DNA of 64,000 nt. Origin: Escherichia coli (GTDB lineage: Bacteria > Pseudomonadota > Gammaproteobacteria > Enterobacterales > Enterobacteriaceae). The translations under genes and the position numbers were made by a program. Positions 3,762 through 64,000 of the stretch are shown one piece after another; positions within the stretch are counted from its first letter, which is position 1, and each line of letters starts with the position of its first letter. Under the pieces are notes generated by a model that did no database searches, was not told the origin of the DNA, and was given only the letters and a program-made list of their open reading frames with translations. The stretch lies in assembly GCF_016903815.1 (NCBI RefSeq), contig NZ_CP069972.1. The stretch is one strand, 5' to 3'.

Positions 3762-4906
3762 ATATTCCTGATGAGTTTGGTCTTTTTCCGTTTCAGCGTT
3801 TCACTGCAGATGAACTACGGCATTTCTTTGTCTGGTGTGCCTCACATAAAGTCAGTGATGTGGATCTGACCGGCGGGTCACCTGTATCTGTCAGTCGCTT
3901 TGGCCGACGGGTGCGTTGTTCCAGTGCAACGTTACCAACCACACTCATGTCCTCCCTGATTGATGAACTGTTCGGTCGGGAAGTCATTCCCCGCGTTCTG
4001 GCAGGCAATCCGGTTGACAGGACGATACAGATTAACGGGGATGCATCCGGGCGCTATGGTCTTAAACGCGGAGAACGCATCCGGTTACGCTCTCACCTCA
4101 TTCAGGGCACATCTGGTGCGGAGGAGAAAGCAATCTCAATAACCATGCGTGTCATCCCGACAGAAATACCGGACATTCTCTCCATGAACATTGAACCAGA
4201 CCTGCTTGAAGCAATGGTCTGCAAAAGCGGTCTGGGATTTGTATGTGGTGAAACCGGGTCAGGAAAATCAACGCTGTGTTCAGCACTGTACCGTTACATT
4301 ATGGACAATTTCCCCGACGCCAAAATCGTGACATATGAAGACCCGGTGGAATATATCCTGGGAAATGAAAACGATCTGCTCCCACCGCATCAGGCAGAAA
4401 TCGGGCGTGATGTGGTCAGTTTTGCTGCCGGACTGCGTTCTGCTGTACGACGTAATCCCGAAATTATCGGTGTTGGTGAGATCAGGGATAACGAAACCGC
4501 CGACGCAGCGGTACAGGCAGGCAACACCGGGCATTACTGCCTGAGCACCATGCATACGAAATCTCCTGGTGAAACGCTGGCACGTCTTCTTGGGCTGTTT
4601 CCCCCTGTCATCAGGGATTCGATGGCCTGGGCTGTCCTGTCACTGTTGCAGTTCATTCTGGTTCAGGTTCTGGTCAGAACAAATGACGGTGGTCGTAAAG
4701 CCGTCCGGGAATATATCGTCATTAACGATGAGCTTCGCGACAATCTTTCCGGAATGCCGCATGCAGAGTGGGGGCATCACATTGATGCCATAATCCGGCA
4801 GGAGAAGCGCCGTATCCGGGACCAGATTCTGGAAATGTATATCCGGAATGAAGTTGACCGAAGAGAAGCGATTCTTTTTATCCCGCCAGGGGAGTTACGG
4901 TCATGA
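3758..4906 (+). CDS. traJ: TraJ, VirB11/DotB/PilT-like secretion ATPase (382 aa)
   Basis: AGGAGG RBS; Walker A GETGSGKST; size and position match IncI1 TraJ as I recall it. Confidence 0.85.
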   Translation: MNIPDEFGLFPFQRFTADELRHFFVWCASHKVSDVDLTGGSPVSVSRFGRRVRCSSATLPTTLMSSLIDELFGREVIPRVLAGNPVDRTIQINGDASGRYGLKRGERIRLRSHLIQGTSGAEEKAISITMRVIPTEIPDILSMNIEPDLLEAMVCKSGLGFVCGETGSGKSTLCSALYRYIMDNFPDAKIVTYEDPVEYILGNENDLLPPHQAEIGRDVVSFAAGLRSAVRRNPEIIGVGEIRDNETADAAVQAGNTGHYCLSTMHTKSPGETLARLLGLFPPVIRDSMAWAVLSLLQFILVQVLVRTNDGGRKAVREYIVINDELRDNLSGMPHAEWGHHIDAIIRQEKRRIRDQILEMYIRNEVDRREAILFIPPGELRS

Positions 4907-5848: not shown

Positions 5849-8800
5849 ATGCCGTCTGTATCCCGCTACCGCACCTGGCTTGCCGTGCCTGCAGATGAAA
5901 TAGAAGATCTCAAAAAAGCACATCCCCCGATGAACGGGCACACGCCCGTCATCTGGGACAAGGAGCACAAACTCTGGTTCGCCCGCCCGGGGGCGGACCT
6001 GTCCAGGCTGGACCGCTGGCTGCCCCGGCCACAGGACGTCTCCATGAACGGCAGTGATCCGGTCACCGAGTTTGCCCAGGTTCTGGAGAATGCCGGACTG
6101 GTTCTGAAAGAACTGCCGGTCATGGACGGGAAAATCCACCGTGTCCCGACCGCCGATGACAAAAAAGGACAAAAAAGTGGCGCATATCGCGGATTCCTGG
6201 ACGGCAGACCTGCCGGCTGGTACAGGGATTATCGCAGCGCGGATGATTCGCCGATCACCTGGACCTTCTCCGGCGGAGAACAGACAGATCCCCGCGCAAG
6301 ACTCCACCTGAAAGCGCATTCAATGCAACGCAGGGAGGACGCGGAGCGGGAACTGAAAGCACAGTACAACCGACAGGCCGCGTATGCCCGCCGCTATGTC
6401 AACAAATGGCCGCAGGCCACAGCACATGAATACCTGACCCGGAAAGGCATTCAGGCTGCACCGGGGGTGCGGGTAAACAACAAAAATGAACTGGTTATTC
6501 CCTTCAGTAACCGTAACGGCGCGATACGCTCTTACCAGCGTATTCCGGTCACCGGGGGGAAGGATGCCCGCATCCTGAAAGATTCAGAGAAAACCGGTAA
6601 CTGGTTTGCGCTGGGCACACCGCGCAACGGTCAGCCGGTACTGTTTGCCGAGGGCTATGCCACTGCGGCCTCCCTGCACGAAGCCACGGGCCTTCCGGTA
6701 CTGATGACGGTGGATGGAGGCAACATGATTGCCGTTGCCGAAAATGCCCGGCAAAAGTGGACGCAAAGCCCCTTTATCTTCTGTGCCGACAACGATCATG
6801 CAATCCGGGTTAACAAAGGTATCGTCAGTGCAACAAAAGCCGCAGAACTGACAGGAGGAACGGTCATCTTTCCTGCGTTCACCGATGCCGAAAAAGCGCA
6901 GGGGCTGACCGATTTCAATGACCTGGACGCAAGCCGGGGACGGGCCGCTTTTCAGCATGTCATCAACGCCCAGTTAGAACACATCGGGGTTTCCACCCCC
7001 AACAGTAACACCCCGGAAATCCGCGAGGCACTGGTGATCGGCAACCTCGTTTTTACACCGGTCCACACTGAGGAAAAAACCATGACTCCGACAGAATATC
7101 CTGAAACATCACCCGATACAGGGCACAGCCATGACCAGGGACCTTCTCTGCCGTCCGCCACGCAGCAGGAACAACCAGCTGCTTCCAGCAGTAACATTGC
7201 TGATGAAACACAGTCATTTACCAGTCACGCCACTGAAAATAACGGCAAAGATGAGCGGCACGCTGATAACGTTCAGGCGCAAACGGAAAGCTCTGTAGTT
7301 CAGGACTCCCCTGCAGAATCACCGGCGTCCCCGGAAAGTACAACGGCATCTGCCCCTGATGAACCCGCTCATCCGGCGGAACCTCCGGAAAAAGTTGTCT
7401 CGGTGGCCACAGATAAAGACTGGCGTGAATTTGAAGCCGAACTGTCACAACCGGAAAAAAACGAGTCACAACAGGAATCCGGCACTTCACCTGAAATACC
7501 GGCCCCTGCTGCCGCCCCCGCATCCCCTGAAGACAGTCCCTCATCTGAAACCATGAATGAATCAGCCGAGCCATCACCTTCCCCTGATGCAGTCAAAGAG
7601 GAAATGACCGTGATGACGGAGCCTGATGACAAACAAAGCACCGGAATATCCCCGGATACTCCCCGGGAAGAGGCGGTCAACCATGTAACTGAAGACATTC
7701 CCCTTCAGCCAGAGCCGTTCCTTCCTGAGTCAGATGGCCCCGAAGAATACGAAAACTACAGCGCATATCAGGAGCTGATGAACAATGAAAATCCTGAGCA
7801 TCTGCAGGAAAACAGTGATATGCCGTCGCAACCGGACACAGACCACGTTCAGGCAGATGAGTCAGAACTTCAGGCCACAACAGATACTGCAGAACCGGCT
7901 GTCCGGGATGAACCCACTCCACAGCAACCTGTTCAGAGCACATCACCTTCTGATAATACTTCATCGTTTCTCGACAAAGCGCGTGGCTTTTTTACGCGTA
8001 AAAAAACGGATTCACAGGCACATGAGAACAGTGATCCCACGCCCTCAGCGGAAACCACGACGACTCCACCGATACCTGACAGTATTGTCTACGCCCCGGA
8101 ACGTTCTGATGCACCGATATCGCTCAACATGGACGAAATTCTTAAAGAGCTTGACTGGGAAAAACGAGCAGACAGAACCGTCCTGTACAAACTGGATGGC
8201 AAACCTGCCTTCATTGACCGGGTAAACCGGCTGGAAATGGTCAACGGTGCCAGCAATGACGATCGCAGCGTTCTGGCCGCACTTGCTGTGGCCACCAAAT
8301 TTTATGGGGGCGTCATAGAGCTGACGGGCAGTGATGCCTTTAAGCAAAAAGCAATGCAGTTGATTATCGAGCACAACATCGATGTCCGGATGAAATTGCC
8401 AGATCAACGGGCTGAACTAGAAAAATTACGCAAGGAAATGGCTGTCAGTAAGGATGCAGTTGTCACCCATCAGCCAACACCGGAACTTAACCGGAATACC
8501 CCAGAACAACCGGCTGTCCCTGACCCCGTTCAGGAAAAAGAAGCCACACAATCCCCGGCGTCCCCTGTTGCCCCTGAAGCATCAACCGTCAGCACCGCCT
8601 CTGCACCATCACCGGCTGAACCAGGCAAAACGGCAGATGTGGCACCAGACGAAGAACCACCAGGAAAACTTCGCCCGGGAGAGAGCGTGACTGCCGTACT
8701 GCACAATTTTGGTCGTGCTGAATATGCACCCGGCAAAGGAGAGAGTTTCTTTGTTGAGCTTAAAAACCGCAGTGGCAGCAAACTCTACTGGGGGGAACAA

Positions 8801-53996: not shown

Positions 53997-54923
53997 TCAT
54001 CCGCCATAATGCGCCACATTGTCGATTATCCACGCAGGTCCGGTGACTTCCGGCAGCTCATCATCATCTGTCGGGGAAGACCATTCCAGTTCCCCCCACA
54101 GCACATCAACGAGCTCTCCGCGCTCATACAACTGCCAGCCACAGAAATTGCAGCCCTGTTCGGCGTACCAGTGCTCCAGCGTGCAGCCGAAACGGCGGCT
54201 TAATTCTGCAACAACGTCGCTTTCCGGCTGACACCACGGCGTGTCGAAATCTACCTGAATGAAGTTTTCCCCCTGACTGCTGATATTCAGGTCATACCCA
54301 CAAGGCCACTTCACGCCATACCGTTCTGTATACCAGTGATATGCAGAAGGAACACCGTTCAGAACACCGCCGTTAAAGCCATTCACTTCAATATCCAGGC
54401 GGGTCGGCAAAACCGTCAGCAGGTCAAACGGCATGGTTTTTTCCGGCAGTACGTTGTCACACAGACGGTTCCACCACACCGATACATCCTCGTTACCCCA
54501 GATGTCACACCAGTCACCTCTTTTTGCGGTGAAATGCACAGTGATAGTTTCCCTGACATCATCCGGTAACTCTTCCCAGCGACGCTGTCCAGTACCGCTC
54601 TGCAGCCAGAGTTCATGCAGCATCAGGCAGTTTTGCTCATCCAGCAGTACACCGTTCTGCAGGTGTGTCAGCCAGCGGGTGAACGCGATATTTTCCGGTG
54701 ATACAGCACCACGTCCGGCAGCCGTCACTCCGGGGCACTGCTCAGAGCGGATATTTTCAGTGATCTGCAGAAGTCCGGCACTTCCGGCCAGAAACAGCTG
54801 AATACCTTCATTTGTGGCGCGGCGATAAAGCGGTGTAACTGCACCGCTGGCCAGTCGTTTAATCTCAGCGATCTGTGCCGGTTCACCAGAAAAATACATA
54901 CGATTCGAGCACCAGTTTGGCAT
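53997..54923 (-). CDS. Hypothetical leading-region protein (308 aa)
   Basis: GAGGAG before ATG 54923 (inside track ORF); W/C-rich; no motif recognised. Confidence 0.5.
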   Translation of the reverse strand: MPNWCSNRMYFSGEPAQIAEIKRLASGAVTPLYRRATNEGIQLFLAGSAGLLQITENIRSEQCPGVTAAGRGAVSPENIAFTRWLTHLQNGVLLDEQNCLMLHELWLQSGTGQRRWEELPDDVRETITVHFTAKRGDWCDIWGNEDVSVWWNRLCDNVLPEKTMPFDLLTVLPTRLDIEVNGFNGGVLNGVPSAYHWYTERYGVKWPCGYDLNISSQGENFIQVDFDTPWCQPESDVVAELSRRFGCTLEHWYAEQGCNFCGWQLYERGELVDVLWGELEWSSPTDDDELPEVTGPAWIIDNVAHYGG

Positions 54924-55275
54924 GGGAATTCTCCTCTCACATGCGGCCTCCATCAGGCCGTGCCGCACCTGTTACCGGGCGACCGCATACGAATGCAGGT
55001 GCGGCCCCGAAGCCGCAGCGCGTGGAGGAGGAACGACGAAACGTGACCGGGTGAGGAGGCCGGCGACAGCGACACACTTGCATCGGATGCAGCCCGGTTA
55101 ACGTGCCGGCACGGCCTGGGTAACCAGGTATTTTGTCCACAGAACCGTGCACAAAATGCTGTGGATAAGCTGGACACAGCAGCCCACAGCAGGCATACAG
55201 CCACACACTCAGAGAATTGAGCGTTTTTTAGTCACAACAATGACATTTGACTGTGTGCGGATTCAGTTATTAGAA

Positions 55276-55295
55276 TACTGTATAAACATACAGCA
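55276..55295 (+). promoter_or_regulatory. LexA (SOS) box upstream of impC
   Basis: TACTGTATAAACATACAGCA fits CTGT-N8-ACAG; 22 nt upstream of impC. Confidence 0.75.
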
Positions 55296-55317
55296 TAAAG
55301 AAAAGGGAGATGAGAAC

Positions 55318-55566
55318 ATGATCCGCATTGAAATTCTTTTCGACCGCCAGAGCACAAAAAACCTCAAATCAGGCACACTTCAGGCGCTACAGAATGAAAT
55401 CGAACAACGTCTGAAACCACACTACCCGGAAATCTGGCTGCGTATAGACCAGGGCAGCGCCCCGTCTGTATCTGTCACAGGAGCCCGCAACGACAAGGAT
55501 AAAGAACGTATCCTGTCTCTGCTGGAAGAAATCTGGCAGGACGACAGCTGGCTGCCTGCAGCATGA
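55318..55566 (+). CDS. impC: ImpC, DinI-like regulator (82 aa)
   Basis: GGGAG RBS; ATG 55318 internal to track ORF; first gene of SOS-boxed operon. Confidence 0.75.
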   Translation: MIRIEILFDRQSTKNLKSGTLQALQNEIEQRLKPHYPEIWLRIDQGSAPSVSVTGARNDKDKERILSLLEEIWQDDSWLPAA

Positions 55567-56000
55567 GTACCGTTTATCACCGTCCGGCTGACCCTTCAGG
55601 CGATGACAGTTACGTGCGACCGTTGTTTGCCGATCGTTGCCAGGCCGGTTTTCCTTCGCCTGCCACTGATTATGCTGAGCAGGAACTGGATCTGAACAGC
55701 TATTGCATCAGCAGACCTGCAGCCACCTTCTTTCTGCGCGCCAGCGGTGAATCGATGAACCAGGCTGGCGTGCAGAATGGTGATCTGCTGGTAGTGGACA
55801 GGGCCGAAAAACCACAACACGGGGACATCGTTATCGCTGAGATCGACGGTGAGTTCACCGTCAAACGACTGCTGTTGCGCCCACGCCCGGCACTGGAGCC
55901 GGTTTCAGACAGCCCGGAGTTCCGCACACTGTATCCGGAAAACATCTGTATTTTTGGTGTTGTCACTCACGTGATACACAGGACGCGGGAGTTACGCTGA
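55563..56000 (+). CDS. impA: ImpA, UmuD/MucA-like S24 peptidase (145 aa)
   Basis: LexA/UmuD-type fold with RASGESM and lysine dyad; ATGA overlap with impC. Confidence 0.85.
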   Translation: MSTVYHRPADPSGDDSYVRPLFADRCQAGFPSPATDYAEQELDLNSYCISRPAATFFLRASGESMNQAGVQNGDLLVVDRAEKPQHGDIVIAEIDGEFTVKRLLLRPRPALEPVSDSPEFRTLYPENICIFGVVTHVIHRTRELR

Positions 56001-57271
56001 TGTTTGCACTGGCTGATATCAACAGTTTCTACGCCTCATGTGAAAAAGTTTTCCGCCCGGACCTTCGCAACGAACCGGTCATCGTACTCAGCAATAACGA
56101 TGGCTGTGTGATCGCGCGCAGCCCGGAGGCAAAAGCCCTTGGCATCAGAATGGGGCAGCCCTGGTTTCAGGTGAGACAAATGCGCCTGGAGAAGAAAATA
56201 CATGTATTTTCCAGCAATTATGCGCTGTACCACAGCATGAGCCAACGGGTTATGGCTGTTCTGGAGTCGCTTTCTCCCGCAGTTGAGCCCTACTCAATTG
56301 ATGAAATGTTCATTGATTTGCGGGGGATAAATCATTGCATCTCTCCGGAGATTTTTGGTCATCAGCTCAGGGAACAGGTAAAGAGCTGGACAGGACTCAC
56401 CATGGGGGTGGGCATTGCGCCTACAAAAACGCTGGCTAAAAGTGCCCAGTGGGCAACAAAGCAATGGCCACAGTTTTCCGGTGTGGTCGCGCTGACGGCA
56501 GAAAACCGTAATCGGATCTTGAAGCTACTGGGGTTGCAGCCAGTTGGTGAGGTCTGGGGAGTAGGACGCAGACTGACGGAAAAGCTGAATGCGCTGGGTA
56601 TTAACACAGCACTGCAGCTGGCGCAGGCTAACACGGCATTCATCCGGAAAAACTTCAGCGTCATTCTTGAGCGTACGGTACGCGAACTCAACGGCGAGTC
56701 CTGCATATCTCTGGAAGAAGCACCGCCGGCAAAACAGCAGATTGTCTGTAGTCGCAGTTTTGGTGAACGAATCACAGACAAAGATGCCATGCACCAGGCT
56801 GTTGTTCAGTATGCAGAGCGGGCCGCAGAGAAACTACGTGGGGAGCGTCAGTATTGCCGGCAGGTGACGACATTTGTACGGACATCCCCCTTTGCAGTAA
56901 AAGAACCCTGTTACAGCAATGCCGCTGTGGAAAAGCTTCCATTGCCCACACAGGACAGCCGGGACATTATTGCCGCAGCATGCAGAGCGTTAAACCATGT
57001 CTGGCGTGAAGGGTACCGCTATATGAAGGCAGGTGTCATGCTGGCTGATTTCACACCATCGGGTATAGCGCAGCCGGGATTATTTGATGAAATCCAGCCC
57101 CGTAAAAACAGTGAAAAGTTAATGAAAACACTCGATGAACTGAACCAGTCGGGAAAAGGGAAAGTGTGGTTTGCGGGGCGAGGAACCGCCCCTGAATGGC
57201 AAATGAAACGGGAAATGCTTTCTCCTGCGTATACCACCAGATGGACAGATTTGCCAGTAGCCCAGTTATGA
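56000..57271 (+). CDS. impB: ImpB, UmuC/MucB-like Y-family polymerase subunit (423 aa)
   Basis: MFALADINSFYASCEKVFRPDLRNEPVIVLSNNDGCVIARS... Y-family N-terminus. Confidence 0.9.
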   Translation: MFALADINSFYASCEKVFRPDLRNEPVIVLSNNDGCVIARSPEAKALGIRMGQPWFQVRQMRLEKKIHVFSSNYALYHSMSQRVMAVLESLSPAVEPYSIDEMFIDLRGINHCISPEIFGHQLREQVKSWTGLTMGVGIAPTKTLAKSAQWATKQWPQFSGVVALTAENRNRILKLLGLQPVGEVWGVGRRLTEKLNALGINTALQLAQANTAFIRKNFSVILERTVRELNGESCISLEEAPPAKQQIVCSRSFGERITDKDAMHQAVVQYAERAAEKLRGERQYCRQVTTFVRTSPFAVKEPCYSNAAVEKLPLPTQDSRDIIAAACRALNHVWREGYRYMKAGVMLADFTPSGIAQPGLFDEIQPRKNSEKLMKTLDELNQSGKGKVWFAGRGTAPEWQMKREMLSPAYTTRWTDLPVAQL

Positions 57272-57292
57272 ATATGTAATCCACCCATAATA

Positions 57293-57366
57293 TTGTTATC
57301 CTGTTATCCTGCTATCTTGTTATCTTGTTATCTTGTTATCTTGTTATCTTGTTATCTTGTTATCTT
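57293..57366. repeat. Upstream array of ~9 direct 8-bp repeats (TTGTTATC): centromere-like iterons
   Basis: Tandem unit read directly. Confidence 0.8.
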
Positions 57367-57379
57367 AATTAATCTATAA

Positions 57380-57490
57380 ATCAAATACTTAACAACTTGC
57401 TAAGTTGTTAACATAACAAAAATAATTGCATGGTTCGCGTTCAGATGGCAATATTAAGTTGTTAACTTAACAGCTTAATATGAGGCTATA
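57380..57490 (+). promoter_or_regulatory. par promoter/operator region with palindromes
   Basis: TTAACAACTTGCTAAGTTGTTAA and TTAAGTTGTTAACTTAA upstream of parA-like start. Confidence 0.4.
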
Positions 57491-58117
57491 ATGATAATAG
57501 TATTAGGTAGTCAAAAGGGTGGGGTAGGTAAAAGTACACTGGCGGTATCTATAGCTGCGTATCTGATGTCACTAGGCAATAGAGTGATTATTGTCGACGC
57601 AGATGACCAGAAATCAGTATTAACCTGGTACAACAATCGCCCTGAAGATCTCCCTCATATTCCGGTTACAGGCGCGACAGGTAACATCAAAGCCATGTTA
57701 AAGGAACACGAAAAATCCTATGATTTTGTTATTGCAGACTGTGCTGGCCGTGATAGCGCAGAAATGCGTAGTGGATTGATGGCCGCAGATGTATTCATTT
57801 CTCCTTTGCGCCCATCTCAGATGGACCTGGATGTTGTGCCTCATACATGCTCCGTTTTTACAGCAGCAAAAGATTTTAATGAGGATGTTCGGGGATATCT
57901 CGTTTTAAACATGACGCCCACAAATATGTTTGTTAATGAAGCCAATGAGGCAGCTGAAGTACTTAAGGATTACCCTGAAATGCATCTGGCAAACTCCCGG
58001 GTATGTGATCGTAAAGCACATCGAGATGCTTGGGCCGAATCAATGACAATTTTTGAAACGCAAAATGATAAAGCCCAGCAAGAAATCGAAGCGTTAGTGA
58101 AAGAGGTTATTCTGTGA
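57491..58117 (+). CDS. parA: ParA/ParF-like small Walker-type partition ATPase (208 aa)
   Basis: Deviant Walker A GSQKGGVGKST. Confidence 0.85.
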   Translation: MIIVLGSQKGGVGKSTLAVSIAAYLMSLGNRVIIVDADDQKSVLTWYNNRPEDLPHIPVTGATGNIKAMLKEHEKSYDFVIADCAGRDSAEMRSGLMAADVFISPLRPSQMDLDVVPHTCSVFTAAKDFNEDVRGYLVLNMTPTNMFVNEANEAAEVLKDYPEMHLANSRVCDRKAHRDAWAESMTIFETQNDKAQQEIEALVKEVIL

Positions 58118-58416
58118 GAAATAGAGCAAACACTTCACCTCGTGACGAGGCAGCATTTATTAACGGTGGCACGGCTGGCCTTGATAATACCAAAAAGTCA
58201 TCAGATAAATCATCGGTTGTAAGCAAAGCAAAACCAGTGAGTATTTCTTTTTTTGAAGAAAACCTAAAAGACATTGATGCCCTTATAACGGCTGAGATGG
58301 TTTCAGGTAAAGGCAGAGTGAATCGTTCTGATGTTGTCAGGGCGGCGGTAGAAGCACTTAAAACACTATCAAAAACAGAGGTATCACGATTGATAGCAGA
58401 AGTAAAACAAAGATAA
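58114..58416 (+). CDS. ParG-like centromere-binding protein with C-terminal RHH (100 aa)
   Basis: Translationally coupled to parA; C-terminal GRVNRSDVVRAAVEALK RHH-like. Confidence 0.6.
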   Translation: MRNRANTSPRDEAAFINGGTAGLDNTKKSSDKSSVVSKAKPVSISFFEENLKDIDALITAEMVSGKGRVNRSDVVRAAVEALKTLSKTEVSRLIAEVKQR

Positions 58417-58420
58417 CACC

Positions 58421-58486
58421 TTGTTATCTTGTTATCTTGTTATCTTGTTATCTTGTTATCTTGTTATCTTGTTATCTTGTTATCTT
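58421..58486. repeat. Downstream array of ~8 direct 8-bp repeats (TTGTTATC)
   Basis: Same unit as upstream array. Confidence 0.8.
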
Positions 58487-58541
58487 CAATGTATTTTAGG
58501 ATGACCTATGTTGAATAGAACCTAAAACAAAACAAATATTA

Positions 58542-58833
58542 ATAGGGGTCCGCTTGGAAAAGGGAAATTTTCCCACGCTAAGAGAATTGAGTTGAACGAG
58601 TGGTTACATCCAGGCCAGCTAACTCACTGAACGTAAAGGCTGTACGAAATGTTCCGGCCGTCCGATAACCGTTTGGCTTACTTCCGTACATTCCCTTGCG
58701 TAGATGTACAGAATTGTACGATTTCGGACACCAAAACCGCTGTTGTCCCGCCATTCTGGCGATTCCTGAAAGTCCTTTGACTAAAAAATAGTCTTAACGT
58801 GGTTTATTTTCCGAATTCCAAGCGGACCCCTAT
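58542..58833. mobile_element. 292-bp element bounded by 18-bp perfect terminal inverted repeats (MITE/IS-remnant-like)
   Basis: ATAGGGGTCCGCTTGGAA at 58542-58559, reverse complement at 58816-58833; no ORF inside. Confidence 0.4.
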
Positions 58834-59035
58834 CAGGCCTGCCGTGGGGATTTTGTGGTGCGTCTCGACGGCAGCACCTGTCTGCAGTTATGGAATAAAG
58901 AAGGCAGGGTGGTACGCCGGGAGGGCGATCCGCTGGAAGTGGCGCAGTGGCTGCTGGCCTGTCATGACGCAGGAATAGAAGTTCGCGTACAGATAAATGA
59001 AAGTGCCGCTCCGTAAGAACACGCCTGTGCACGGT

Positions 59036-59383
59036 TTACACATCATCCCATGGTGGCAGCCGGTTAACTTTCCTGCGCCACCAGTGGAAAGAGGCCATGC
59101 ACAGTCCGAACAAAAAACCCCCCGTGATACTTATAATAATGGCCTCACCTGCCACCATTCCTGACGGCCCCCAGTAGATAAACCACATTGCACATCCCCA
59201 GGAAATGCCCCATAAGCCCCCCGTCAGCACCGTGACCTGCCAGAACGGCATAAAGGGTAATGGCGGAAGCCGGATACCCAGCCGCCATAGAATACGCAGA
59301 AGAGGAGGGGCATAATTGCTCCGCCACATCTTTTTGCTGTCCATCAGGGCAATGGCCCGGGCTTTTTTCTGCTCAAAGGTCAC
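59036..59383 (-). CDS. Hypothetical Trp-rich membrane protein (115 aa, GTG start)
   Basis: GGAGG 7 nt before GTG; 2-3 TM helices; adjacent to immunity gene. Confidence 0.45.
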   Translation of the reverse strand: MTFEQKKARAIALMDSKKMWRSNYAPPLLRILWRLGIRLPPLPFMPFWQVTVLTGGLWGISWGCAMWFIYWGPSGMVAGEAIIISITGGFLFGLCMASFHWWRRKVNRLPPWDDV

Positions 59384-59511
59384 AGGAGCACCTCCGTTCC
59401 ATGATGTAAACGTGACACAGCTTATTGTTATTGATTATTATTATCATGCTGTGGTTATGTTGTCATGCATCAGTACACTGACAAAAGTGCAAAAGAAAGG
59501 AAAACAGGCAG

Positions 59512-59847
59512 ATGAACAGAAAATATTATTTTAATAATATGTGGTGGGGATGGGTGACGGGGGGATATATGCTGTATATGTCATGGGATTATGATTTTAA
59601 ATACAGATTACTGTTCTGGTGTATTTCTCTCTGCGGAATGGTTTTGTATCCAGTTGCAAAATGGTATATTGAGGATACAGCTCTGAAATTTACCCGGCCT
59701 GATTTCTGGAACAGCGGTTTTTTTGCTGATACACCTGGAAAAATGGGATTGCTTGCTGTTTATACGGGTACTGTTTTCATATTATCTCTTCCGTTAAGTA
59801 TGATATATACTCTTTCTGTTATTATAAAAAGGCTGTCTGTAAGATAG
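59512..59847 (+). CDS. iia: Colicin Ia-type immunity protein (111 aa)
   Basis: MNRKYYFNNMWWGWVTGGYMLYMSW...; 3 TM helices; opposite strand to colicin gene as in pore-former colicins; Ia versus Ib rests on recalled 111-aa length. Confidence 0.8.
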   Translation: MNRKYYFNNMWWGWVTGGYMLYMSWDYDFKYRLLFWCISLCGMVLYPVAKWYIEDTALKFTRPDFWNSGFFADTPGKMGLLAVYTGTVFILSLPLSMIYTLSVIIKRLSVR

Positions 59848-59866
59848 ACAGCCTGTCTTATATTTT
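59821..59866. terminator. Bidirectional terminator shared by convergent colicin and immunity genes
   Basis: GGCTGTCT-loop-AGACAGCC with T/A-rich flanks. Confidence 0.55.
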
Positions 59867-59868
59867 AT

Positions 59869-61749
59869 TTAAATACCCCAGAACTTATTCGCTTTTTCCA
59901 CAAGCGATTCATCAATCAGCGCACCGGTGACAGCCATCAGTAAACCATACCCGATAATGCCTAAAGCGCTTCCGGTAAGAATACTGAAGACCAGTGCAAC
60001 AAGAGCCGTTGCGGCATTGCCTGCTATAATGGCTTCTGTTTTAACAAAAAGAGGACGCCAGTTCTCTGTCCGGACAGCCTTACCAAACTCAGTGATCCAG
60101 TCAGCAAGACTTGTAAATTTTCCTGCATATCCCAGTCCCCGACTGAATCTGTTCAGATTAGACGATATATCAGACAGCTTCACAGACTCAAGGGCTGCGG
60201 CAATCGCTGCACGATCTTTTGCATTAATTTTTTTGTTAATGTCAGCCCGGTACTTTTCATACGTTTTTAATGCCTCTTCAACATTACGTATTTTCTTCCC
60301 TTTAGCCTGCCCGGCCATCTCTCTGGCTAACTGCTCAGCTTTTGCACCATATTTTTCTGAAACTGATTTCAGGAACTCTGTTGTGAAATTAATTGCGTCT
60401 TTCGTTTCCTTCAGTTCATCCTGTTTTCTTTTCTCTTCCGCTATCTTCTGATTGATGCCGGCAAGCTGGTTACGGATATTCTCTTTTTCCTTCAACAGGG
60501 CATTAAGAGCGTCATTTGCATGCTTTTGCTCATTTGTTCTGGCACTGAGGTTATTTCTCGCCGAATTTACCGCAGATTCAGCAGAGGTGATTTTATTTCT
60601 GGCATCAAGCAATCTTTGCCGTAACTTATCCCATTCAGCAACTTCAGCATTATAAATTTTCTTGTCACCTTCCACATCCTCTGTCACCACCGGATTCCGG
60701 TCATTCAGAATATTGCGTTTATAGTCCAGACCGGAATGGGTCAGAAGATAATTCAGGTTTGCACGGTTATCGATGACTGCGCTGGTTGTGATTTTTATCG
60801 TACCGGCAAATCTCGGATCACCGCTCACAACAATAGAATGATTTGTTGATGAACGCCCCGGGAATTTTTCAGGGGAAACTATCGTTTTGCCGTCAGGCGT
60901 GTTTTTCTGTTGCGTCAGCTGTTGTTCAGCTCTGGTTAATGCATTACGGGCCGTGTTAAGCGATTCCGTCACTGAACTGAGTTTATTCCGGGCCTCTGAA
61001 ATGGCCCTGTCATTCCGTGTCTGCTGCCCGAGCAGACGGGCCTGTTGTGCATCAAGAACGGCAAGGGCTGCCCCGCCATTTTTTTCCAGCTCTGACAACC
61101 GCGTGTCCAGAATACCTTTTCTGCGCTCGTATTCAGCAAGCATATCAGCGGCCTTCTTGTCTGCGTTCTGCGCATCCTTCTGCCGTTTTTCAGCCTGTTC
61201 GATTAACGACCTGGCCTCCCGGGGAGATATACGAAGAGAATCAGCATCAGCAAAGAGCATCCGGCTCTCTGTATGCAGCCGGAGGGCATCATATCCGGCG
61301 ATTTCAGTACGGAATCCGTATTCTCTCAGCTCTGCCTGCAGGAGTCTGAACTCCTGTCGTGTAATATCAGCGGCATCTGCGTTTCCGGCACGGAGTGTTT
61401 TCAGTGTGTTTTCATCTTTTTCCCTTGCAGCAATCGCCGCAGAGAGGCGTTTTCCGGCTTCAGTACGCTTATTCTCATTCTCTTTCTGCTGCGCGCTGAG
61501 CGTGTTTTTGTACGCTGTGATTTCCTTGTCCCTTTTTTCGATATCACTTCGGGTTGGGGAATCATCAACCCACTCGTTTCCGCCCCAGATGGTTTTGTTC
61601 CCGAAGGAACTCCATGCAGGCGGGGTACCATGAAAGACATCGACACGTGGAGGGTTTACATAAATATCAACGGCCATAATTTCATGGCCATCTGAATCAT
61701 ACCCCAGCGATTCTGCACCGGGATTTGTAATACGTACAGGGTCAGACAT
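59869..61749 (-). CDS. cia: Colicin Ia/Ib-family pore-forming colicin (626 aa)
   Basis: MSDPVRITNPGAESLGYDSDGHEIMAVDIYVNPPRVD...; long coiled-coil; C-terminal hydrophobic hairpin; 626 aa. Confidence 0.9.
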   Translation of the reverse strand: MSDPVRITNPGAESLGYDSDGHEIMAVDIYVNPPRVDVFHGTPPAWSSFGNKTIWGGNEWVDDSPTRSDIEKRDKEITAYKNTLSAQQKENENKRTEAGKRLSAAIAAREKDENTLKTLRAGNADAADITRQEFRLLQAELREYGFRTEIAGYDALRLHTESRMLFADADSLRISPREARSLIEQAEKRQKDAQNADKKAADMLAEYERRKGILDTRLSELEKNGGAALAVLDAQQARLLGQQTRNDRAISEARNKLSSVTESLNTARNALTRAEQQLTQQKNTPDGKTIVSPEKFPGRSSTNHSIVVSGDPRFAGTIKITTSAVIDNRANLNYLLTHSGLDYKRNILNDRNPVVTEDVEGDKKIYNAEVAEWDKLRQRLLDARNKITSAESAVNSARNNLSARTNEQKHANDALNALLKEKENIRNQLAGINQKIAEEKRKQDELKETKDAINFTTEFLKSVSEKYGAKAEQLAREMAGQAKGKKIRNVEEALKTYEKYRADINKKINAKDRAAIAAALESVKLSDISSNLNRFSRGLGYAGKFTSLADWITEFGKAVRTENWRPLFVKTEAIIAGNAATALVALVFSILTGSALGIIGYGLLMAVTGALIDESLVEKANKFWGI

Positions 61750-61790
61750 TCGGTATCTCCTTCATCCTCTGAGGAAAACAAATGAATTAA

Positions 61791-61820
61791 CTGCTTACGC
61801 ATATGGATACATATACAGTA
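61791..61820 (-). promoter_or_regulatory. Overlapping double LexA box in the colicin promoter
   Basis: Coding-strand TACTGTATATGTATCCATATGCGTAAGCAG, ~40 nt upstream of the start. Confidence 0.55.
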
Positions 61821-62027
61821 TTAATTTATTAAGGAGAAAATGGCATGTCAAGATTTGATGATAGTGATTATCATTAACATGAAGTGATGTTACACCGTTC
61901 AGAAAGCCTGCTGACGCTGTGGCAGCATCACAGTCTGGGTATTCTCTGGTGCAATACAAAAACCGGACTTTCCCGTAACAACAGACAATGTTACGGGAAA
62001 AGTTACAGAACTGAGCCACAAAATATC

Positions 62028-63374
62028 TCAGTACCTGAGATGCATAAAAACACCGTACATATGTTTCTTAAAAGGGGGATGCTCGTTATCCAGCCATTTC
62101 GGTGGATCGGTATGCAGAACACCAATCTGCTTCATGCCGGTATGCTGCCTGGATTTTCTCGCGCAGTAATCACTGTCTTCATATCCCATCGTTTCGATGA
62201 CCACTCTGGCCGTCTTTCCGTCAGGAGCCCTTGCTGTGACAATGAAATCCGGCAGTACATATTTCTTTTCACCATTAACATAAACTTCTGTATCAAACAG
62301 GGGCCTTTCCAGACTTAATTCCGGCGTACCTGGCTTTCTTTTAAGCCAGCTGGCCACATTCAGAAGAGCAGTGAGCGTGTTTCGTTCCAGTTTGCTGTCC
62401 ACAGGCACCGGACATGTCAGTTGATAAAGAGCATGAGCATACCCTTCACTGCAGATGATTCTGCCATCGGCACTCCGGCAAAAAGCAAGAATAACCCAGT
62501 AAGGGGGACGTATTCCGCCCTGCGCTTCACCATTAATACTGATCCCCCGCACAGGTCTGATGACCTGAATATTACCGTTCGCCCAGTGAATTTCCACAGC
62601 ATCACGACAGATGTGCTGCGCCATAAAAATCTGAAAGAACATATGCTTTCTTCTGGCAGGCCAGTGTCGTTCTGAATTCTCCAGCGTTTCCATTAACCGC
62701 TCCTGAGACCTTTCAGACATTCCTGGCCGGAAATGGATAATTTCAGATAAGGCTCTTCCCCGAATATACTCCTGCTGTAGTGTAACCTGCCGTATGGCAT
62801 CAAGACACTCACGATAATTAGTCCGGATACGGGGATTAGCCAGGGAATCCAGTTTATTCAGCCCTGCATCTTCAATAAGCGACAGGAGTAAACGGCCAAG
62901 GCGCGGACGTTTCTTGCGAACGGAGGAGCGCTCACCATTATGGTAAGCAGAGCGGGCCTGCAGTCTGATAACAGAATTACTGTCATCAGGTGGTAAAAAG
63001 TTTCTGTAATTTATACGGGTGCTAACGGGATGCCGGCTTGCTCCGAAGGATGTTTCCTCTTCATTTCCGGATAACTGACGATACATGGGGCATTCAGGTG
63101 CATGCTCATGATTAAAACTGGACAGATAAAGAGTACCCGTATTGTTTTTAAGAGCAGCAAAATTCATGGCCGGCGAATCTCCCGGAATACAGTCACACTG
63201 TAACCATGCATCATACTCACGCATTTCCCGGAGAAGATCATTGGCCAGGTTATGTTGTGCCATGGTTGCTGGCCTTTTCAGTCCACAGACCGTCTTTACT
63301 GCAGTCTCTTCCTCACTGCTAAGCTCCCGAATCACTTTGCCCCGGGGATTCTTCTTTACAAGTATCATTGGCAT
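62028..63374 (-). CDS. Hypothetical protein (448 aa)
   Basis: AAGGAG before ATG 63374 (M24 of track ORF); no motif recognised with confidence. Confidence 0.5.
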   Translation of the reverse strand: MPMILVKKNPRGKVIRELSSEEETAVKTVCGLKRPATMAQHNLANDLLREMREYDAWLQCDCIPGDSPAMNFAALKNNTGTLYLSSFNHEHAPECPMYRQLSGNEEETSFGASRHPVSTRINYRNFLPPDDSNSVIRLQARSAYHNGERSSVRKKRPRLGRLLLSLIEDAGLNKLDSLANPRIRTNYRECLDAIRQVTLQQEYIRGRALSEIIHFRPGMSERSQERLMETLENSERHWPARRKHMFFQIFMAQHICRDAVEIHWANGNIQVIRPVRGISINGEAQGGIRPPYWVILAFCRSADGRIICSEGYAHALYQLTCPVPVDSKLERNTLTALLNVASWLKRKPGTPELSLERPLFDTEVYVNGEKKYVLPDFIVTARAPDGKTARVVIETMGYEDSDYCARKSRQHTGMKQIGVLHTDPPKWLDNEHPPFKKHMYGVFMHLRY

Positions 63375-63727
63375 AATGAAAGCACTCCTTATGTACATGC
63401 TTAAACAGTAAGTAAAATATACAAAGAACCCCCCATGAAACAAAGGCAGAGATGAACTGTGCGCCCCGATATCTTCTTCTGATATCCTTTCAAATGAATT
63501 GTTTTTATTTATATCATGACAACATTAAAGTGAGAGAATATATCAACCATGTTTCTGTCAGGGTTCAGTAGAATATCAATTCGACTGTCACGCCATAACT
63601 GTAACTACCTCGAGTATAAATATTCAGAGAATGGACTTATTAGCCATGAAAAATCACCTGATGGGAAATTTACTAATTTATGGATTGTGATATTATTAAA
63701 GAGTAAAACCAGCCAGCCGAGGTATTT

Positions 63728-64000
63728 ATGGGAAAAAATCAGGAAGAAAGGAAAACTCCCGTCATTGTGGTGAAAAAACGTCGTACTTTTTCGCCACCGT
63801 CCTTATCCGAAAAAACAGATATTATCGCACCTGTATTTACTGAACAGACGGCAGAATCAGCCCCCGCCGGAATAAATTCATCTGCCGTCGAAACACATAT
63901 CCCCGAAGCGCCAGCCAGGAAGAAGAAAAAGAAAAAACGCCGTTTCCCACGTCCCTCCCACTGGACCCGTGAGTATACTCACGAGTGCGTGGAAAAAATA
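63728..64000 (+). CDS. Window-truncated ORF (>=91 codons), basic K-rich N-terminal region
   Basis: ATG 63728 open to window end; not in track because no stop. Confidence 0.3.
   Translation, partial: MGKNQEERKTPVIVVKKRRTFSPPSLSEKTDIIAPVFTEQTAESAPAGINSSAVETHIPEAPARKKKKKKRRFPRPSHWTREYTHECVEKI

Follow-up and report, generated by a model that had tools for sequence, protein, structure and literature searches.

What could be the role of a second small membrane protein gene beside a colicin immunity gene? The question is raised by a contig of Escherichia coli (NZ_CP069972.1), of which a stretch of 64,000 nucleotides, referred to here as the window, was analyzed. An open reading frame (ORF) of 115 codons, ybaA, lies there immediately left of the 111-codon immunity gene for colicin Ia (imm, also iia) and shares the strand of cia, the structural gene for colicin Ia (Table 1). 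An earlier note on this DNA, made from the letters alone, had described the ORF in these terms, including its GTG start and strong Shine–Dalgarno sequence, and the description holds: imm and ybaA diverge across a gap of 128 bp, and GGAGGT precedes the start codon by 6 nt. The note had also proposed an orphan immunity-like or abortive infection (Abi)-type protein, while conceding that the gene could not be assigned from sequence alone; the proposal found no support in the homology searches described below, and the concession was justified. As will be argued, ybaA is a member of the family DUF6404, its product is predicted to be a small hairpin in the inner membrane, and its expression is probably governed by a Fur-repressed promoter of its own; what it does can be answered only tentatively, protection of the host cell being the leading guess.

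The gene itself is neither new nor, as had been supposed, extra. Its product matched the Pfam family DUF6404 (PF19942) with 128.1 bits against a cut-off of 27.6 (E = 2.7e-37), residues 1–114 aligning with positions 1–114 of the 115 in the profile. In the PHROG collection, its only strong match was phrog_31022 (“unknown function”), and in more than 3000 plasmids, it carries the Prokaryotic Genome Annotation Pipeline (PGAP) label “DUF6404 family protein”. The name ybaA was used in older annotations of IncI and ColV-Ia plasmids, such as pSTM709, where the gene lies beside cib and imm, and pS88 (pS88106); the gene of the window equals these in length, in motifs, and in its position beside a colicin Ia or Ib immunity gene. 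It is already known and annotated, so its sighting as such is ordinary, and it is a catalogued companion of the colicin modules, Ia and Ib alike. The name is ambiguous, as class 1 integrons and the F plasmid have unrelated genes that are also called ybaA; most literature matches to “ybaA” concern unrelated genes, and no paper mentioning DUF6404 was found in the searchable literature.

In favor of the GTG start, the Pfam profile is matched from residue 1 onward, and the alignments of homologues begin at their own first methionine. That ybaA is a real, expressed DUF6404 gene and not a chance ORF follows from the Pfam E value, from the 762 clusters (at 50% identity) retrieved at E ≤ 1e-3 in an exhaustive HMMER scan, nearly all of them 110–135 amino acids long, and from the ybaA transcript detected in plasmid pS88 (PMC3438092). 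A translated search returned 3118 plasmid records with a homologue; ∼2100 of these were at least 90% identical and came from E. coli, Salmonella, and Shigella, and 954 were less than 60% identical, the matches listed at that level being Klebsiella plasmids. At least 80% of ybaA plus its upstream region was present in 1599 of 5426 complete E. coli genomes (∼29%). Chromosomal matches among complete E. coli genomes numbered 2195. The six that were listed comprised no more than 80 bp from the 3′ end of a DUF6404 gene (90–94% identical to ybaA), and in the two inspected (6001–6080 of locus L047 and 4001–4080 of locus L048), the fragment is cut off by an IS66 element that adjoins a phytase-like gene, one of the two islands lying beside fecIRA.

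The largest ybaA clusters (1842, 585, and 349 members) are full length. In ColIb-P9, the gene is split into two frames at residue 88/89, at a run of six G and six T (G6T6); because this copy is frameshifted, there is a gap in the RefSeq table of ColIb-P9. Two further variants (P0020 with 85 and P0021 with 50 members) leave the frame directly past the residues ITGG. The G6T6 run could be a frameshift hot spot, either through slip-strand switching or through homopolymer sequencing errors. Among five close ybaA alleles, the ratio of nonsynonymous to synonymous substitution rates (dN/dS) was ∼0.5–1.2, derived from 4–13 substitutions only, which is too few to interpret.

The earlier note had expected a tryptophan-rich membrane protein with two to three transmembrane helices. 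The protein is indeed rich in tryptophan (10 residues, 8.7%) and also contains 11 glycines; its membrane character stood as well, and the number of helices was corrected to two on the basis of an AlphaFold model and of the distribution of lysine plus arginine. The model, computed from a 72-sequence alignment, reached a predicted local distance difference test score (pLDDT) of 97.1 and a predicted template modeling score (pTM) of 0.84. It placed helices at residues 3–16, 21–24, 27–34, 47–71, and 78–106, of which 47–71 and 78–∼101 would span the membrane and the short N-terminal ones would be cytoplasmic or interfacial. By Kyte–Doolittle hydropathy alone, only the second membrane helix was clear. 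Across the family, the N-terminal 46 residues have 7.3 lysines plus arginines on average, the loop has 0.9, and the C-terminal tail has 3.8, which by the positive-inside rule puts both ends in the cytoplasm and leaves almost nothing in the periplasm. YbaA is predicted, with good support, to be a small two-helix hairpin of the inner membrane (N-in/C-in) with a periplasmic loop of ∼6 residues; its ∼45 N-terminal residues are predicted, equally well supported, to form three short cytoplasmic helices that include the conserved motif PPLxRLLWxLG...PP. The N-terminus is a charged helix (MTFEQKKARAIALMDSKK), with neither a signal peptide nor a lipobox.

Conservation within the family concentrates on a few motifs, all of which the window protein carries: PPLxRLLWxLG...PP, GxxxGxxxG in helix 1, GxxxGxxxA in helix 2, and LPxW in the basic C-terminal tail. 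The glycine zipper of helix 1 comprises G55, G59, and G63, and the small-xxx-small series of helix 2 comprises G89, G93, and A97. At positions 55, 59, and 63, a small residue is found in ∼90% or more of the family members (glycine alone in 60–79%); the column frequencies of the other conserved residues are 89% (G89), 99% (G93), 82% (A97), 93% (P26 and P41), 90% (L109), and 100% for the invariant W112. Such ladders usually mediate tight helix packing or oligomerization, and we infer that they do so here. The sole cysteines, at positions 64 and 95, are both embedded in membrane helices, and alleles differ at C95.

Expression of ybaA appears to be wired to iron. The scan predicted a promoter-like site upstream of the gene (10 of 12 consensus matches; promoter-like sites are no more numerous in the region than expected from shuffled sequence), and the gap also holds a divergent promoter-like site for imm. 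The −10 elements of both are overlapped by a Fur-box-like sequence, GATAATAATAATCAATAAC. Sites with at most three mismatches to the Fur consensus occur at two places in the window, against 0.01 expected by chance, and the second sits a short way upstream of the cia promoter. Expression of colicins Ia and Ib responds to iron as well as to the SOS system, so the site at cia serves as an internal positive control. The region 61801–61878, which also holds a LexA-box-like sequence, is where control of colicin Ia by both SOS and iron would be expected to act. No LexA-like box was detected by the scan near or upstream of ybaA.

The Fur-box-like sequence at ybaA is identical in ColIb-P9, and a box with 15–16 of 19 matches occupies the aligned position, 45–80 nt before the start codon, in homologues that are ∼55% identical and have different neighbors (on an Enterobacter chromosome, L016; on a Kluyvera/Serratia element, L019, L020, and L028; in a prophage, L026–L032). 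As their upstream regions are related, these homologues count as one lineage and not as several independent ones. The GGAGG before the start codon is likewise kept in this subgroup (alignment A4). Even where a plasmid's Ia-specific sequence comes to an end, the conserved ybaA unit reaches approximately −95 and, because of this extent, includes the box and the −35 element. A second lineage, to which the Klebsiella chromosome and plasmids, Kosakonia, and others belong, has a different upstream region and no box.

Published quantitative reverse transcription PCR (qRT-PCR) data for pS88 trend in the same direction (PMC3438092). For ybaA, the chelator dipyridyl gave a 5.25-fold rise (p 0.197), serum a 4.87-fold rise (p 0.189), urine an 8.9-fold rise (p 0.096), and urine in vivo a 3.27-fold rise. 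For cia, the corresponding values were 5.1, 21, 6.0, and 70, and for imm 1.1, 5.6, 3.5, and 3.2. The upward trend of ybaA, in parallel with cia, is suggestive, though not significant. Judging from the sites in the gap that it shares with imm, ybaA probably has its own Fur-repressed promoter on this plasmid. As far as was found, the Fur box at ybaA is not noted in the available literature, and it constitutes a testable lead.

Sequence and fold comparisons did not connect YbaA with any protective protein. PADLOC-DB 2.0 gave no match for YbaA at E ≤ 0.1 and none for 16 diverse DUF6404 members at E ≤ 1, NCBIfam gave none for YbaA, and Pfam returned DUF6404 only, with neither PF03526 nor a lysis family. 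The neighboring Iia, unlike YbaA, matches the E1-type immunity family PF03526 (Table 1), and hhalign assigned a probability of 0.07% to a relationship between the DUF6404 family profile (A1) and Iia. The best match in a profile search of PDB sequences (subunit C of particulate methane monooxygenase, E 0.13) is not credible; a fold search of BFVD produced holin matches at E > 2, nothing specific, and no viral protein of known function. The comparison with immunity and Abi proteins that the earlier note had proposed was thereby carried out and revealed no similarity, which is one half of what that note had named as speaking against its idea. The abortive infection genes ibfA and ibfC of IncI plasmids are separate genes located 2–3 kb further left. 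A role for ybaA as the determinant of Ia versus Ib specificity was rejected because the same gene, ∼97% identical, adjoins both immunity genes.

Where DUF6404 genes reside is more informative than what they resemble. On IncI and IncF plasmids, they lie beside colicin Ia or Ib immunity genes; on IncFII plasmids of Klebsiella, directly after finO and traX with no colicin nearby; and on other plasmids, beside a gene for an “anti-phage transmembrane ATPase” or near cvaAB. Two P22/E217-like prophages (L007 and L033) carry the gene between ejection/tape-measure-like genes and the arc/ant region, and the prophages L026–L032 and L041 carry it after the genes for tail fiber and tail fiber assembly. It is also present in phage-plasmid-like contigs (L037–L040) and in two 109-kb Klebsiella phage records, and on the chromosomes of Klebsiella, Enterobacter, and others, it is isolated between housekeeping genes. 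Clustering of the neighbors at 11 Enterobacterales genome loci from different genera revealed no shared partner beyond near-identical loci, that at 16–17 viral or prophage loci no conserved partner, and the loci of two more distant relatives were equally uninformative; this survey rests on the close alignment A3 and is biased towards Enterobacterales for that reason. It is firm that the gene forms a unit of its own, one that travels between plasmids, prophages, and islands. Two candidate partners were considered and rejected: yagA and ybaA as an ancestral pair that the colicin module would have separated, since the Klebsiella neighbor is unrelated to YagA, and a recurring β-propeller neighbor, since the protein of E. 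coli has no relationship to that of Klebsiella.

The association with imm is tighter than that with cia. Among ∼1012 plasmid records with the Ia-type imm, ybaA is kept beside it in 954 and the adjacent 3′ part of cia in only 425; in many of the records listed, the match ends at query position 377, ∼20 bp into cia. More than half of these plasmids are thus without most of cia. The orphan pair of imm and ybaA is commoner than the complete colicin Ia locus.

On these grounds, we tentatively favor the reading that ybaA encodes an iron starvation-induced, stand-alone (“moron”-type) protective inner-membrane protein of mobile elements; this is speculative, and the chance of its being correct is well short of even. 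When iron is scarce, repression by Fur would be lifted and ybaA switched on. Scarcity of iron is also when cells present the greatest numbers of Cir, Fep, and Fhu receptors and when their exposure to TonB-dependent colicins, microcins, and phages is highest. YbaA, carried by plasmids and prophages for the benefit of the host, would work within the inner membrane, its glycine zippers probably holding it together as an oligomer, and would hinder a membrane-inserting invader, for instance a channel-forming toxin or a DNA entry step of a phage. It would be neither a specific Ia/Ib immunity factor nor a suicide effector. A protective role is preferred because of the moron-type and immunity-adjacent positions of the genes, the retention with orphan imm, and the predicted topology, which fits since nothing but the membrane helices and the cytoplasmic side would be free for contacts. 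This leading guess, which is held weakly, rests on context and not on homology.

The proposed mode of action, helix–helix contacts inside the membrane, is that of the E1-type immunity proteins (Iia, Iib, Cei; PF03526), which are likewise aromatic-rich, helical inner-membrane proteins of ∼110 amino acids encoded beside a pore-forming colicin gene. YbaA differs from them in that a sequence relationship is absent (compare the hhalign and Pfam results above), in its two predicted membrane helices, whereas three are described for the E1-type class, and in that most DUF6404 homologues, such as those at the Klebsiella plasmid, prophage, and chromosomal loci, have no toxin partner. With superinfection exclusion proteins (P22 SieA, T4 Imm) and other moron membrane proteins, YbaA shares the character of a small, stand-alone inner-membrane protein encoded in accessory slots. 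Phage P22 carries sieA between the genes for its ejection proteins and the arc/ant region, which is the place of the DUF6404 gene in the two P22/E217-like prophages; this likeness is positional only, and sequence or fold similarity to exclusion proteins was not detected. YbaA thus resembles immunity and exclusion proteins solely in its size, its location, and the context of its gene.

Several observations weigh against a protective role. None of the searches run linked YbaA, by sequence or by fold, to an immunity, exclusion, Abi, or defense protein. Accessory regions hold many kinds of genes, which makes the evidence from context circumstantial. The homologues with a Fur box form, by their related upstream regions, a single lineage, and some homologues are isolated chromosomal genes between housekeeping genes and are without the box, which on this plasmid also overlaps the promoter-like site of imm and could serve imm instead. 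Classical cloning work reportedly assigns specific Ia/Ib immunity to imm alone. The dN/dS values and the common frameshifted copies fit weak selection or a cost. Finally, the inductions of ybaA in pS88 were not significant, and the qRT-PCR was not strand-specific (PMC3438092).

Data from Salmonella touch on the same subject. S. Typhimurium SL1344 lacking cib and imm stays resistant to colicin Ib, and imm was called “functionally redundant”; the resistance was attributed partly to CirA, and strain D23580, which is without cib and imm, behaved alike (bioRxiv 10.1101/2024.06.29.601355). The apparent redundancy of imm, which is explained there by CirA and holds in a strain said to have neither cib nor imm, carries no information on ybaA.

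Does ybaA have a function on these plasmids at all? It is conceivable, albeit unlikely, that on E. coli and Salmonella plasmids it is a decaying passenger kept only by its distance of less than 130 bp from the selected imm. The dN/dS between close alleles, the many truncated or frameshifted variants with their homopolymer hot spot, and the 80-bp ybaA fragment in ∼2000 chromosomal places of E. coli (going by the six matches listed) would all suit such a gene. Yet most copies are intact, as the full-length state of the three largest clusters illustrates, the substitution counts are too small for a conclusion from dN/dS, and some of the frameshifts may be homopolymer sequencing errors. Moreover, the family is old, large, and strongly conserved, with covariation strong enough for a pLDDT of 97, and the Shine–Dalgarno sequence, start codon, and promoter region of ybaA are all conserved.

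Another explanation, quite improbable in our estimate, makes YbaA a release or permeabilization factor for colicins Ia and Ib, or a holin-like suicide effector, which would be made together with the colicin, oligomerize through its glycine zippers, and render the inner membrane leaky. The gene order of colicin, opposite immunity gene, and lysis gene is that of the colicin E1, A, N, and K operons; ybaA lies accordingly downstream on the cia strand with the opposite imm in between, and we know of no recognized lysis gene for colicins Ia and Ib. If true, this explanation would bear on how these colicins exit the cell without one. A Fur box as at cia, the rise of the pS88 transcript parallel to that of cia, and the frequency of glycine zipper membrane hairpins among pore formers agree with it, and a costly or toxic product would fit the frequent frameshifts at G6T6. 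However, a strong predicted bidirectional terminator between the ends of cia and imm stands in the path of cia transcription toward ybaA, which has a promoter-like site of its own and no LexA-box-like site nearby. Most homologues are far from colicins (after finO in Klebsiella, on chromosomes, and in prophages, where they occupy moron slots and not, as holins would, lysis cassettes), and ybaA is kept beside imm in many plasmids without cia. The protein itself is also unlike the known effectors. Colicin lysis proteins, compared with which YbaA is about twice as long, are lipoproteins with a lipobox cysteine and a mature peptide of ∼30 residues, whereas YbaA is no lipoprotein, has no signal peptide, and matches neither a colicin lysis nor a holin family, the PHROG entry being one of “unknown function”.

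Equally hard to credit is an iron homeostasis accessory role, in which YbaA would aid a step of iron, siderophore, or heme uptake or a stress response and its proximity to colicin genes would be mere linkage: the Fur box at the promoter, the upward trend of the transcript in iron-poor media, the abundance of the gene on ColV/ColIa virulence plasmids rich in iron systems, and the chromosomal remnant in an island beside fecIRA speak for it, but the 11 genome and 16–17 viral or prophage loci show no conserved linkage to a transporter or receptor, many homologues are without a Fur box, prophage moron positions are atypical of iron uptake genes, and nearby iron genes are simply abundant on such plasmids. 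The remaining probability belongs to functions outside the readings listed.

The features of the region are compiled in Table 1. In matching plasmids, imm is annotated as “colicin 1A immunity protein”.

Table 1. Features of the ybaA–imm–cia region, in window positions (a dot marks a feature not assigned to one strand).
Feature	Position	Strand	Details	Basis
Remnant of a 196-aa hypothetical gene	58855..59016	+	C-terminal 53 codons; 96% identity to residues 144–196	Comparison with L006
ybaA	59036..59383	-	115 aa, GTG start, DUF6404/PF19942	ORF list; Pfam; phrog_31022; PGAP
G6T6 homopolymer run	59112..59123	-	Within ybaA codons 87–91 (T-G-G-F-L)	
Shine–Dalgarno sequence GGAGGT	59390..59395	-	6 nt before GTG	Sequence
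Fur-box-like site GATAATAATAATCAATAAC	59427..59445	.	16/19 to consensus	
ybaA promoter-like site	59437..59466	-	−35 ATGACA 59466..59461, 18-nt spacer, −10 AATAAT 59442..59437	
imm (iia), colicin Ia immunity gene	59512..59847	+	111 aa	ORF; Pfam PF03526, E 2.6e-7
Bidirectional hairpin terminator	59830..59854	.	Tails GTCTTATATT (+) and TTTTTATAATA (-)	Scan positive on both strands
cia, colicin Ia structural gene	59869..61749	-	626 aa	ORF; annotation in matching plasmids
LexA-box-like sequence upstream of cia	61801-61820		15/20	
cia promoter-like site TTGACA/TAAATT	61851-61823		Beside the 17/19 Fur-box-like site	
Fur-box-like site upstream of cia	61860..61878	.	17/19	Window scan

To the left of ybaA, the module shared with other plasmids breaks at ∼58831 (query position 432), and the left neighbor of ybaA is a gene remnant (Table 1). 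Other plasmids, like ColIb-P9, have the complete gene of 196 codons, which comes after an 85-codon gene and is oriented convergently with ybaA; the 196-residue protein has weak matches only (AbiEi_4, E 0.024; JetA, E 0.0024). The sequence between a parA-like operon and the colicin module (58400–58830) matches at least 5000 plasmid records, hundreds of them from Klebsiella, and as these far outnumber the carriers of the colicin module, it contains some very widespread plasmid sequence. Further left, 55147–58416 contains a DinI-like (impC-type) ORF, umuD/umuC-like genes (55563–57271), and a gene for a ParA-family ATPase (57491–58117) with an overlapping partner gene of 100 codons, which is typical leading-region and maintenance cargo of IncI and IncF plasmids. 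On the other side, a YagA-like ORF of 471 codons (62028–63443, minus strand; “protein YagA” in related plasmids) lies beside cia; it matched neither Pfam nor PADLOC and is another conserved neighbor of the colicin module. A scan of 54000–64000 with Rfam yielded no RNA family.

The carriers of ybaA include plasmids of the IncI1 and ColV types, by which resistance and virulence are spread, and its homologues are found on more than 3000 sequenced plasmids. If YbaA is an iron-regulated protective or exclusion factor, as tentatively favored here, it would be a new component of the textbook colicin Ia/Ib locus and would extend the catalogue of mobile-element defenses by a new family. A bolder version, which we consider rather unlikely, sees in DUF6404/YbaA an unrecognized class of stand-alone inner-membrane protection factors borne by mobile elements, one lineage of which would be wired to Fur, so as to be produced when the cell is exposed through iron-regulated receptors, and which would confer broad, non-cognate protection against channel-forming bacteriocins or phage genome entry. 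Protection of this breadth, if true, could help explain why the orphan pair of imm and ybaA persists on hundreds of plasmids without cia.

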